A DNA stretch of 64,000 nucleotides from Octopus vulgaris (lineage: Eukaryota), in contig OX597828.1 in assembly GCA_951406725.2 (NCBI GenBank), forward strand, positions 4,464,001 to 4,528,000, given 5' to 3'. Positions within the stretch are counted from its first letter, which is position 1. Each line of letters begins with the position of its first letter. The position numbers and the translations under genes are program-made. Below the pieces are notes generated by a model, which saw only the letters and a list, made by a program, of their open reading frames with translations, was not told the origin of the DNA and ran no database searches. This document shows, piece by piece, positions 10,410 through 17,660 of the stretch.

Positions 10410-10472
10410 TGTATGTATGTATGTATGTATGTATGTATGTATGTATGTATGTATGCTGGTATGTATGCATGT

Positions 10473-11350
10473 ATACATATAACGGCGTACACCTTTGCTC
10501 ACCTCATAGTAAGTTTTCTTTTCTCGCCTTTTTCAAGCCTAGCCAGGCTCATGGGCCCGGTTTCCCGGTTTCTGCGGCGTATGTGTTTCCCCCAGCTGAA
10601 CGGGACTCAGTCAATCGCAGCGTTACTCAAGAAACAGGAAGAGAGAGTGAGAGAAAGTTGTGGCGAAAGAGTACAACAGGGGTCACCACCACCCCCTGCC
10701 TGAGCCTCGTGGAGCTTTTAGGTGTTTTCGCTCAATAAACACGCTCAACGTCGGTCTGGGAATGAAACCGCGATCATCCGACCGCAAGTCCGCTGCCCTA
10801 ACCACTGGGCCTTTGTGCCTCCACCATATAGAAAATATGTATCTAAATTTTTGTACGATTATTTTACTGTATTTTAGTCCCCCTCATACTTTCTCTCTCT
10901 TTTGTTTTTCTCGCTCCCCCTCTCTGACATTTCTTGGCCCTCGCATTCTTTAACTCCCACTTTTCATCCTCGTTTATTTTCCCTTTATCTCTTTGATCTT
11001 TTATTAATCCTAAATCCCACTGCTCCTGCCCCTCCTTCCACGTGACCAGTGTAAATCCAGTCATGATCTCTCTTTCTTGCCCTGACTGCTACCCATCAAA
11101 ACCTTTTATGTCCTTCTCCTATGTTCCTGTCTTTAGATCGAACAGTCTCAAGTATAACAACCTGAAACTGTGAGAACGTCTGTAACTTGACTGACGAAAG
11201 AAGGCCGCGAATACAAGCCCATTTTTCCTCTCCTTCTAATTACTTTTCATGTCTGCCTTTTGTTGTCCGCTATGGCGTTTTTATTCCTATGTTTTATATT
11301 TATATATACATATAACGGCGTACGTACACCTTTGCTCACTTTCTAGTAAG
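10473..11350 (+). mobile_element. Non-coding terminally redundant element (family B) with internal SINE insertion
   Basis: A ~40-bp direct repeat (tatacatataacggcgtac...cctttgctcac...tagtaag) lies at ~10473-10514 and ~11306-11350. Pyrimidine-rich body; structured motif at 11135-11230. Confidence 0.6.
10660..10825 (-). mobile_element. tRNA-derived SINE (family 3)
   Basis: Minus strand GTGGAGGCACAAAGGCCCAGTGGTTAGGGCAGCGGAC...GGTTTCATTCCC. A better-preserved copy is at 55695-55861. Confidence 0.75.
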
Positions 11351-11421
11351 AGTAAATACATACGTGCTCCAGCATGGCCACAGTCAAATGACTGAAAGAA
11401 GTAAAAGAGTAAAGAGTATAC

Positions 11422-11453
<32 letters not shown>

Positions 11454-11488
11454 ATATATATACATACCGTATATATAGAATATATATA

Positions 11489-11680
11489 GGGGGGAAAAGG
11501 GGCCTGTATTCGCGGCCTTCTTTCGTCAGTCAAGTTACAGATGTTCTTACAGTTTCAGGCTGTTACACTTGAGACTGTTCGATCTGGTAATTCCCAAAAA
11601 AGTTTAAGCTAAGAGCATTAGATTAGATTTTTTTGTAAGAAAGCTAACGAATATGTCAGACAACAAAGGCAAATGCGGAG
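11489..11680 (-). repeat. Inverted second copy of the family B terminal motif
   Basis: 11489-11585 is the reverse complement of 11135-11230 with few mismatches. Confidence 0.8.
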
Positions 11681-11730
11681 AACATGGTATTATAAATACA
11701 AACAACATAAATATTACAACATAAATTTTA

Positions 11731-11768
<38 letters not shown>

Positions 11769-11974
11769 CATATTATATTAATTATATTTATATTATTTGT
11801 TATTTATGTATTGGTTTATGTCTATCACTGTTTGAGTTGCCTAATAGTGGTTTTATCTCTAATTCATATACATATACATATCCTATATATATATATACAC
11901 TATGCATATATACACACAGAACACACACACACACACACACACATACATATATATTACTACATCTTTCTATAATT

Positions 11975-12163
11975 TCATGTATTTGTTTTAGTCATGTGAC
12001 AGCGGCGATGCTGGAGCACCGCTTTTAATCAAAGAAATCGTCCCCAGGACTTATTCTTTTGATCTCTTTTGCCGAATTGCTAAATTACGGGGACGTAAAC
12101 GCACCAACATCGATTGTCCAGCGATGGTGGGGGAAAGACACAACACACAAACTTACACGCACA

Positions 12164-12258
<95 letters not shown>

Positions 12259-12405
12259 GACGGGCTTCTTTCAGTTTCTGTCTACCAAATCCACTCACTA
12301 GGTCGGCCCTAGGCAAAGACAAGTGCCCAAGGTACCACACAGTGGTACTGAATCCGGAACCGTGTGGTTAGCAAGCAAGGTACTTACAGCCACTCCTACG
12401 CCTAT
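11975..12405 (-). mobile_element. SINE family 2
   Basis: Reverse complement of head (acagccactcctacgcct) and tail (gtcatgtgacagcggcgatgctggagc). Confidence 0.8.
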
Positions 12406-12422
12406 AAAGAAGAAATGGAATG

Positions 12423-12498
12423 GAGTCCCACATGTAAGTAATAACTAGGCTCGATGTTGCTTAACTTCCCAGATCCGACGAAAACCGGTGCTTTCACT
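12423..12498 (-). pseudogene. 5S rRNA-derived fragment (truncated pseudogene)
   Basis: Minus strand TGAAAGCACCGGTTTTCGTCGGATCTGGGAAGTTAAGCAACATCGAGCCTAGTTATTACTT matches the central part of metazoan 5S rRNA, including box A AGTTAAGCAAC. Box C is degenerate and both ends are missing. Confidence 0.8.
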
Positions 12499-12499
12499 C

Positions 12500-12705
12500 C
12501 TCCAGTGTTATCCAAGGGAAAGGCAAAGGGCCGATGCATCTTCGCACCTGTGACGTCACAACTCATTTCTGCAGCTGAGTGTACTGCAGAAACGTGAAAT
12601 AAAGTGTCTTGCTCAAGAACTCAACACGAAGACCGGTCCGGGATTCGAAATCACAACCTCGCGATCGTCAGCTCGACGCTCTAACCACTGAGTCATGCTT
12701 CTCAC
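12500..12705 (-). mobile_element. tRNA-derived SINE (family 4-related)
   Basis: Minus strand TGACTCAGTGGTTAGAGCG...GATTTCGAATCCC, then GTTCTTGAGCAAGACACTTTATTTCACG. Confidence 0.7.
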
Positions 12706-12717
12706 AAAATACATATG

Positions 12718-12764
<47 letters not shown>

Positions 12765-12850
12765 TTATGCACAATATATCAGCATATGAATATGCATATA
12801 TATATTTTATGTATATATATATATATATAATTATATATATTGTATATATA

Positions 12851-12891
<41 letters not shown>

Positions 12892-12939
12892 CTTTAAACA
12901 ACTATATTTTAACTTTATACAATAAGACAATATTTTTTG

Positions 12940-14200
12940 AAATGATCATTAGAAATTACTTGATTTACCTCTTTCTTAAATGACTCTACGCTCCTCATGT
13001 TAGTATTCATAAGGGTCTTTATATAAATAACCCTTCTAAACAAGTACCACTAAGAAACAATAAATATCATGTAGGCAGTATCAATAATAACATATAGTAT
13101 AACGTTAGATTTAAAAAATGATTAGTGTAAAATATGAAAGTTCCGTAACATAAATATTTCTTTAGCTGATACCAGGTATCAGATTTTTTTTTTTGATATT
13201 AGCTAAATAAGTAAATATATAATTGTTAGTCTAATATATATTGAATTATTATACTTTTCTATAAATCCTCTCTATTGGTGTTAATAAGCTACATATACTT
13301 TACCATAGTATTAGTAATTAAGCTATTTTATTCCTTTTCTATGGTGTTCTGCCCTACTTGATTATTTTATTTTATTTCTTTATTATTTTATAATTTACTT
13401 TTATTTATTCATAAAATTAATCTAATTTTTGTATCTCTATAAATTCATACTTACCTTATATAAAAGTACACTACTTATATAAAACTGCTTTGATTATAAT
13501 TTTATTAATATATAATTAGCATGTTCTTTTACCTCAATACTCCTTTATTAATATCTATATTCAGAGACACCATCTGACGTGTTAATATTTAAGTGTACAA
13601 TATGTATAAATATTAAACTATTTCTGGATAATTTCCTTTCCTCCCTCTATTGTGGTAAAAGTTTGGTGTATACTCAAAAGTATTCATAAATGTCTATCCT
13701 TTTGTTATAATATTCCTCTTAATAACCCTCTAAATAATCCTAAACTTTAATTGTATTTAACTAAAGTACTACATGATAAGACTTCCCCTGTTTCATTATC
13801 AATGGTCTTCTTATGGGCGACCCTCTTAATTGTAAGCTAACATCTTGTTTTAAGTTTTCCTCATGATATTGCTTCTAATAAATCTTGATTTGTATGACTA
13901 TACCAACTATGACTTCTGTCTGCTCCCTCAGCCCTACCCCTAACACATACTGCCCTCTGTTCTCTCAGCCTTAGATATACAAGGATTTGAAACCTAGTCT
14001 ATAAATTAAAACTGACCCCATAAAACACCCCCAAAAAATCAGTGAGAAGCAGAGTCAGTGACAATGTATATCTTCTTGATAACTTAGTAACTTCTATGCT
14101 GGAGTGAAGACAGCATGTTCTTTGTCTATCTCCTTAACTTCTTGGAGATTTTAGGTAAATTATGCTAATGTGTCCATCTGTTCTAATTTAATTAAATTCT
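12940..14200 (-). pseudogene. Possible highly decayed L1/Tx1-like non-LTR ORF2 3' region
   Basis: Strand-skewed, non-microsatellite block. Minus-strand peptides FLGVFY (~14030), R..LTIK (~13830) and LP..EGG (~13650, frameshifted) occur in the order expected downstream of an L1/Tx1 RT. No intact ORF. Confidence 0.3.
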
Positions 14201-14306
14201 ATGTCTTTGTGCAGCTGAGGATTACTCTGCATTTTGAATTGATGTAATGATTGCATTGTTCAATTAAATGGATTTTCATGAAACGATCGTATTGCATTAC
14301 CTACAC

Positions 14307-15178
14307 GATACAAAGAAAACAAGGACGGGTCATTCGGAGTTTTCTGTCCTCAGTCGAGTTCCAGATTGTCTTTGTAATTTCGGCTGCTTATACTCGAGAT
14401 TGCTCCAATTTGGCCAGCCCCATGGAACAACTAAGCTAACAACATTAGATTCCTTGGAAGAAAGTAGCGAATGTATACGAAAACAAGGAAGAAAAGACAC
14501 AGAGAATACAAATAACACAAATACAAATAACAGAACATATCAACAGGTGTCTTTCAACTAAGGATGAATTGAATTAAGCTGCCGTATGTGAAAGTAAAGC
14601 CTTACGACAGGGACACAAGACTTCTTAAGCACAGGAAGGAATAGAGATGCTGCAAGGCCGGCGGCCGGACCAATAAATAAAGGTCAGACTTGTGTGATCA
14701 CCGGTCACGTGGGGGAGAGAATTCAGAGACGGTAGAGGCAAAGGGATAGAAGAAATAAGGAGGGGCGAGAATAAAGGACAGGGACGCAGTGAATTGAAAA
14801 GTGGAGGGAAAGCGAGCATGAAGAGAAGGTAAGGAAATGTGAGGGGGGAACAAAAGAACGAAAAGTGGAATGTACGAAGTAAGCGTGAAAGAGCGGATAA
14901 AAAAGAAGGAAAGAATAAAAGAATAGAAGAATACAGTAGTACAAGATTTAGATGAATATATACTTACATATAAGAGACCAAAGCGTACATACGCGTTTAT
15001 ATGTTTTATATATAAAAAAATACAAACTGTGACAAGAACGCATAACATCCGGACAATTAGGTAATACAAAAAAGGGACAGCAAAACATCAAGATAGACGA
15101 TACAAAGAAAACAAGGACGGGTCATTGGGAGTTTTCTCTCCTCAGTTGAGTTCCAGATTATCTTTGCAATTTCGGCTG
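14307..15178 (-). mobile_element. Non-coding terminally redundant element (family A)
   Basis: An 80-bp direct repeat lies at 14307-14386 and 15099-15178 (period 792). Shares CCACGTGACC and AATCTAATG..TTAGCTTA motifs and the terminal motif with family B. Confidence 0.65.

Positions 15179-15211: not shown

Positions 15212-17660
<2,449 letters not shown>

Follow-up and report, generated by a model that had tools for sequence, protein, structure and literature searches.

Introduction

The hammerhead core is made up of three blocks, S with the cleavage site, G with GAAA and C with CUGAnGA, which follow one another in the cycle S-C-G in types I, II and III. Non-circular permutations, described as types SGC and CSG, also cleave in vitro (Eckert et al., 2023; PMC10085705). 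In the accessible part of that paper the step from A9 to G10.1 is assumed to be uninterruptible, with at most 1-2 inserted bases, and only two natural CSG sequences are reported; the accessible part of PMC3088659 mentions core insertions only of 1-2 nt. Naiads, which are Penelope-like elements (PLEs), are described in the available sections of Craig et al. (2021; PMC8557442) as being without canonical hammerheads, with only 'HHR_core' (10) and 'HHR_half_core' (8) flagged, and the cephalopod Naiads as long inactive. Here, these systems are compared with an RNA motif carried by two non-coding elements, A and B, in a stretch of 64,000 nt of the Octopus vulgaris genome (GCA_951406725.2, contig OX597828.1, positions 4,464,001 to 4,528,000; hereafter the window). 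An original prediction had regarded the motif as an unassigned covarying pseudoknot and possibly a new or permuted self-cleaving ribozyme, located where the hammerhead of a PLE or retrozyme would sit.

Core and block order of the motif

The motif combines a hammerhead core with three covarying stems in the order S-G-C, the 5' strand of stem II being displaced upstream. It very likely cleaves itself after the UH triplet, which would set the 5' end of the RNA that would be copied by a Naiad-type reverse transcriptase (RT). From 5' to 3' it comprises the helix IV 5' strand, hairpin V, the stem II 5' strand, helix b, GA, stem III and the UH cut; then stem I, an S-G linker of 3-5 nt, the stem II 3' strand, GAAA, the second strand of stem III and a 3-nt bulge with GA; and finally the second strands of b and of stem I, CUGAnGA and the helix IV 3' strand. 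This order of blocks is not a circular permutation of the known cycle. The UC is placed immediately 5' of stem I, which terminates at CUGAnGA, and the four bases before UC pair with those after GAAA to form stem III (GCAA/TTGC in A; ACAG/CTGT in B, with ACCA/TGGT in 4/29 and ACTG/CAGT in 3/29 B-like copies).

The core was assessed in 30 A and 30 B copies fetched by DNA similarity, with no core imposed, of which 27 A and 29 B copies could be parsed and 3 A and 1 B could not. UH, GAAA and CUGAnGA were all kept in 21/27 A and 25/29 B copies, and CUGAnGA was intact in 21/27 and 26/29, respectively. The UH triplet was UC in 26 of the 27 A copies, UA in the remaining one and UC in all 29 B copies, so that H17 was never G, and N7 in B was C, A, G or U. 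With high confidence, the motif is predicted to work like a hammerhead.

The strings quoted for both families in the original prediction are present where it had placed them, GAAA does precede CTGAnGA, and helices b and c cross, with the compensatory change in c between A and B confirmed. In hammerhead terms, helix c corresponds to stem I, b extends stem III and the pair GGCTG/CAGCC makes up stem II. Stem III and the UH site had been overlooked, as had helices IV and V and the kink-turn pattern. The proposal of a conserved structured RNA at the usual site of a PLE or retrozyme hammerhead was borne out by core conservation and covariation. Of the proposed new or permuted ribozyme, the permutation holds and the new catalytic class does not, and the motif is no longer unassigned, as it can be read as a hammerhead core in non-circular order. 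No match at the gathering threshold was returned by Rfam in the window and no ribozyme match on loci L134, L137 and L138, which gave only sub-threshold microRNA and small nucleolar RNA matches. Plain minimum free energy folding did not recover the pseudoknots.

Abundance and covariation

The 2.8-Gb genome was searched with a pattern of the core letters and two GA dinucleotides, the reversed pattern serving as control; the GAAA box, the A15.1-U16.1 pair and UH were imposed in these matches, in contrast to the copies fetched by DNA similarity. The pattern gave 9,446 matches (2,589 + 6,857), the control 182 (27 + 155), and a first look had yielded 1,036 candidates for A and 1,317 for B. The abundance of the motif in the genome is therefore no chance effect.

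The 121 distinct instances formed 23 sequence clusters, in which truncated instances and one likely chance match were retained. They included 12 short loci hand-chosen for diversity from the listing, with some obvious chance matches skipped; because these loci were picked by eye, the covariation test was repeated on the 16 other clusters. In an unfitted MAFFT alignment of the 23 cluster representatives, 21 of 22 pairs changed on both sides. Cells with a two-sided change numbered 135, as compared with 62 after shuffling (0/500), and 75% of cells were paired, as compared with 55% after shuffling and 30-42% in slid controls, although these figures are not probabilities because the clusters are partly related. 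On the 16 clusters that were not hand-picked, family-swap permutations reached the observed pairing in 0/5000 cases for stem I, stem III and the upstream stem II and in 8/5000 for helix b. The stems I, II (with its upstream strand) and III that flank the core covary.

Displaced stem II, helices IV and V and the hinge

The partner of the bases preceding GAAA is a strand located 13-17 nt upstream of the kink-turn GA (GGCTG/CAGCC in A, GGGCA/TGCCC in B). The pair 10.1-11.1 was GC in 12 clusters, GU in two and AU in one, and it was unpaired in eight. An ordinary type-SGC hammerhead, with its stem II strand after CUGAnGA, is hardly tenable, for although it has the same block order and a matching S-G linker, the bases after A9 pair with the strand before GAAA at chance level (4132/5000; 2561/5000 on the 16 clusters) and are engaged upstream in helix IV. 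A type II hammerhead was rejected, as there is no stem II after A9.

The junction from A9 to 10.1 is not limited to 2 nt, and helices IV and V occupy the gap. Hairpin V lies 5' of G10.1, at a distance of 0-2 nt (-5.3 vs. -1.7 kcal/mol). Helix IV is formed by the tail after A9 and the strand that immediately precedes V (4.62 vs. 3.39 bp); when the test was anchored on V, the permutation gave 7/5000 with 21/23 clusters and 9/5000 with 15/16 clusters that were not hand-picked. Together, helices IV and V may form a four-way junction at A9/G10.1.

A standard kink-turn has a 3-nt bulge followed by tandem G-A/A-G between two helices. The same arrangement, with U-U as the commonest adjoining pair (6/23), occurs in 21/27 A and 25/29 B copies, where it was not imposed by the search, and the bend is predicted from this pattern. 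In contrast to the standard kink-turn, a plain bulge is found in several Naiads and in one young subfamily (15/54 intact copies). The copies of this subfamily (L392, L422, L482-L484) are near-identical, occur in tandems of ~845 nt and have a 6-bp stem III extension with a 4-nt bulge. In families D and F (L138, L139, L121, L122), the helix b arms are longer and the loop at the hinge is GA-rich and non-standard.

Helix b connects stems I and II at their distal ends, with only 0-1 nt in between, and therefore the arm either folds back or is supplied by a second copy. Formation of the site in cis, by one molecule bending at the hinge, is somewhat favoured. It is possible, but less likely, that the same ribozyme and cut require two copies, the internal loop of one receiving the terminal loop of the other, either within a tandem transcript or in a dimer, which would limit cutting to multimers. 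Such pairing tolerates any arm length, and the arm does vary, from a stem III of 5 bp here to 10-13 bp in some published Naiads; tandem arrays exist, for example at locus L137, and for minimal PLE hammerheads a dimeric mode of action has been proposed (PMC4209133). A dimer, however, would need neither the nearly fixed arm lengths of the kink-turn families nor the hinge, be it a kink-turn or a 3-20-nt bulge, whose position is the same in almost all families read.

Genomic ends at the predicted cut

The ends of insertions were mapped in the first 100 matches of family C, a subfamily related to A and B, with a probe anchored at +27 and on one contig. Forty-eight copies ran past -44 and six with internal deletions were dropped. 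Boundaries at 0..+27 numbered 41 and those at -1..-43 only five, which corresponds to hazards of 0.0182 and 0.0023 per nt (p 5e-8); 16 fell at 0..+6 and none at -7..-1. Among the first 30 loci, 16 start in the region just past the cut, and all of these are short, ending at about +113 to +185. With a probe starting at the cut, upstream homology was absent from 5/100 family C and 2/40 family A copies. A sharp boundary edge at the predicted bond is the expectation for a self-cleaved template, and RT stalling or microhomology may shape the spread of the ends. Contigs of four runs, tentatively taken to be RNA, cover a family C copy, and shared sequence accounts for the step in their depth near the cut. 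In such contigs, junctions of a circular RNA would be mimicked by tandem DNA.

It is unlikely that the motif is a non-catalytic descendant of a hammerhead, serving to bind the RT or an L7Ae-type protein, and that the 5' ends are products of RT stalling. Kink-turns are protein-binding sites, the core is opened at A9/G10.1, and many boundaries lie at +9 to +27, inside the 3' strands of helices, all of which would suit such a structure. Stalling does not, however, account for boundaries that stop at the cut even though +0..+5 belongs to a 5' strand already freed by the RT. Moreover, only 2/5 upstream ends lie at or beyond -21, although the scored interval includes the 3' arm of hairpin V, and the catalytic positions are all kept while N7 and every helix sequence drift.

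The 3' ends cluster at (TA)n, 120-170 nt past the cut, which fits the internal initiation shown for the PAc PLE (PMC11167929).

Relation to Naiad elements

One family of the motif is linked to an RT. In 17/30 loci it lies 0.4-1.4 kb downstream, in sense, of a degraded RT C-terminus with RT motifs (RVT_1 E 1e-5, under the cut-off), and it matches the motif that ends the Naiad_Obim and Naiad_Ovul consensus sequences. In the accessible portion of the supplement of PMC8557442, the matches to CTGATGA (60/62), CTGAAGA (30/43), CTGAGGA (15/25) and CTGACGA (15/23) were read by eye, some being hidden by line breaks. Read in this way and unscored, the split form ends at least 9 of 54 published Naiad consensus sequences, namely three from Acropora, Obim, Ovul and four placed by file part only (9, 12, 12, 19), with helices IV and V visible in several. 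Type CSG, likewise unscored, ends at least six in the nematode part (three Nippostrongylus, probably Haemonchus; parts 13 and 16 of supplement file S5). The 30 of 43 CTGAAGA matches that were read contained no parsable motif, and several matches in arthropod Naiads fit neither form. The six nematode-part CSG ends (supplement file S5, parts 13-16) show an 'I' helix.

Elements A, B and C share with Naiads, as described in the available sections of PMC8557442, the (TA)n targets, 5' truncation, partial tandems and inverted 5' pieces, and differ from them in lacking an open reading frame (ORF) and any detectable similarity to the Naiad 3' untranslated region (UTR). They are likely non-coding passengers of Naiad PLE enzymes. 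No ORF with an N-terminal GIY-YIG and RT was found in A or B, and Pfam returned nothing for three pieces of locus L134. PLEs with a C-terminal endonuclease were rejected as carriers, since 30 GIY-YIG loci share no motif region with A or B; the single S-G-C pattern match among them had the wrong spacing. An abundant PLE with C-terminal GIY-YIG and many open frames of 781 amino acids was seen in L067, L072, L086 and relatives, and the 3' end of L067 resembles, by eye, a degenerate type I hammerhead. A short, separate insertion of the A type is present in L240, one of the divergent RT loci. A divergent and degraded piece of RT resembling the Naiad type (G000:C15:4446291-4446548) lies about 18 kb before the window, with no motif downstream.

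Five copies of the family C motif, 720-726 nt apart and about 99% identical, form a tandem array at L137:797-3990. This array is a recent amplification, although cephalopod Naiads have been described as long inactive.

Proposed mechanism and comparison with known systems

In the proposed fold, stem III and b would form a hairpin whose loop of ~20 nt is held by both flanks in stems I and II, and helices IV and V would build a four-way junction that replaces the A9-G10.1 bond. The arm would be folded back by the kink-turn, or by a plain bulge in families without one, so that one molecule forms the site. Tandem units would be transcribed through and then cut, and reverse transcription, primed at (TA)n about 120-170 nt 3' of the cut, would run to or near the cut end. 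One outcome would be many cut-to-tail fragments of ~140 nt; the other, from partly cut RNA, would be copies of a unit plus its tail, with the head-to-tail redundancy that element A shows. The motif is probably an active hammerhead topology opened at A9/G10.1 by the four-way junction, with all three distal links closed and a bend at the kink-turn. Naiad PLEs, from cnidarians to cephalopods, would then have in it the ribozyme that they seemed to lack, CSG would take its place in nematodes, and the thousands of genomic 5' ends would record the cut in vivo.

Several observations weigh against this interpretation. The A9-G10.1 link is absent, and because of this the activity could be low. Rough rise-per-pair geometry makes the cis fold borderline in the kink-turn families; longer or straight arms could adopt it only if pairs melt. 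The first helix IV test, in an interval too close to G10.1, was weak (199/5000), the clusters show partial relatedness, and 12 short loci were selected by eye. Exactly 0 was called for only 3/41 downstream boundaries, a second cluster at +9..+13 may reflect RT stalling or TA microhomology, and the end sample includes tandem siblings and a few misclassified rows (L413, L411, L444, L447). No BLAST similarity was detected between A, B or C and the Naiad 3' UTR, and no autonomous partner of these elements was found among 20 hand-picked divergent RT loci. In the PAc PLE, cleavage required protein, insertion in vitro did not depend on cleavage, and no read ends were seen at the hammerhead (PMC11167929).

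The split in block C places the motif outside types I-III, SGC, CSG and GCS as defined. With SGC and CSG, as presented in the accessible part of PMC10085705, it shares the core, the non-canonical S-G-C cycle, the crossing of stems I-III and a short S-G linker, here of 3-5 nt, matching the ~3-nt linker of type SGC, whereas the cycle of types I, II and III is S-C-G. Type SGC has an intact block C with a 3' stem II strand; here the chain opens inside block C, at A9/G10.1. None of the three distal links is open, helices IV and V and a kink-turn or bulge come in addition, and helix b joins the distal ends in place of the extra helix 'I' that ties stems I and II in SGC. The host is an animal retroelement, whereas the SGC motif of PMC10085705 comes, according to the same part of the paper, from metatranscriptomes. 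The patterns of Eckert et al. would likely miss the split form, because the part consulted allows at most 1-2 inserted bases.

Like known type I repeat hammerheads, the motif lies near the 3' end of the repeat unit, has tandem non-coding derivatives and is proposed to cut multimers; those have a short palindromic stem III, whereas here the block order is reversed and the stem III arm is long. A non-coding tandem unit with a predicted ribozyme is also the plan of retrozymes without long terminal repeats (non-LTR), whose type I hammerhead is absent here. The PK hammerhead (PDB 8YDC; PMC11300833, accessible part) likewise has a hammerhead core with extra helices and an altered stem II, but retains A9, G10.1-C11.1 and G12 as one short stem-loop in a pistol-like topology. 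No published report of the motif was found in a literature search that covered few subscription journals.

If cleavage occurs, the statement that Naiads spread without hammerheads would be overturned, and the failure of descriptors to detect them explained. The rule of an uninterrupted block C would be broken, with a topology added to the six considered. Non-circular permutations, so far rare RNAs of metatranscriptomes, would be present in an animal genome in thousands of copies, and a hammerhead would be seen to contain a kink-turn. The accumulation of insertion ends at the cut is relevant to the question of the in vivo role of PLE hammerheads.

Elements A and B in the window

A and B had been presented as two related families. 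Their relatedness stands, with 68% identity over 422 nt, and since the alignment covers the motif and about 400 nt upstream, they are subfamilies of one non-coding, (TA)n-targeting tandem element with a unit of roughly 720-850 nt rather than two families. The absence of a coding ORF from both units was also confirmed, as only short or low-complexity stop-to-stop frames occur in them. The positions of the features are given in Table 1.

Table 1. Features of elements A and B, in window coordinates.
Feature	Position	Strand	Remarks
Element A	14302..15178	minus	792-nt non-coding unit and 85-nt terminal redundancy; abuts (TA)n
Copy A1, full split-core permuted hammerhead (predicted)	14331..14473	minus	helix IV 5' strand through helix IV 3' strand; predicted cut between 14398 and 14397
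A1 helix IV 5' strand	14458..14473	minus	pairs with tail 14331-14346, which begins directly after A9; first pair mismatched
A1 hairpin V	14420..14457	minus	abuts G10.1 on the 5' side; contains the segment AATCTAATG..TTAG, noted in the original prediction as shared
A1 stem II 5' strand, GGCTG (G10.1-10.5)	14415..14419	minus	moved upstream; partner 14382-14386
A1 helix b 5' strand and GA of kink-turn-like loop	14404..14413	minus	partners 14361-14368 and AAA-GA bulge strand 14369-14373
A1 block S	14392..14403	minus	stem III 5' strand (stem III has one C-A mismatch), U16.1 (14399), C17 (14398), stem I 5' strand TCGAGT
A1 block G	14374..14386	minus	stem II 3' strand CAGCC, GAAA (14378-14381), stem III 3' strand
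A1 block C, 5' half	14347..14359	minus	stem I 3' strand ACTCGA and CUGAGGA
Copy A2	15094..15178	minus	3' part of motif only; 5' boundary at +11 from cut
Segment complementary to stem I 3' strand and CUGAnGA	14555..14565	minus	about 11 bp; lies about 150 nt upstream of the motif in both A and B
Element B1	10462..11353	plus	one unit, ~45-nt redundancy; C17 at 11147, GAAA 11164-11167, CUGACGA 11191-11197
tRNA-type short interspersed element (SINE) within B1	about 10515..10822	minus	A- and B-box-like segments at SINE 5' end, read by eye
Element B2, 5'-truncated	11490..11722	minus	C17 at 11573, GAAA 11553-11556, CUGACGA 11523-11529

The head-to-tail redundancy that had been noted in both elements was verified. 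In A, which starts 11 nt past the predicted cut of the upstream motif copy, it is a direct repeat of 85 bp at 93% identity (14302-14386 and 15094-15178). In B, the segments 10468-10514 and 11302-11350 map to one place in other B units; the redundancy of ~45 bp is therefore real, and its explanation as two SINE tails was rejected. B1 is without the helix IV 5' strand, hairpin V and the stem II 5' strand owing to an internal deletion near 11135, which removed about 186 nt immediately 5' of the motif. B2 is a separate inverted, truncated copy in which stem II and the kink-turn G have decayed. The complementary segment upstream of the motif is kept in 6/11 A and 8/14 B copies long enough to reach it and was not seen in family C; in A and B it may act as an attenuator or switch that blocks the ribozyme.

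The window also contains other repeats. A frameshifted 3' part of a non-LTR retrotransposon (RVT_1, zf-RVT), which resembles R4/Dong elements, lies between (TAA)n tracts at 15400-17563 on the plus strand. Fragments of common SINE-like repeats with matches in many fetched loci occupy 11355-11410 and, as judged by eye, 11995-12290.

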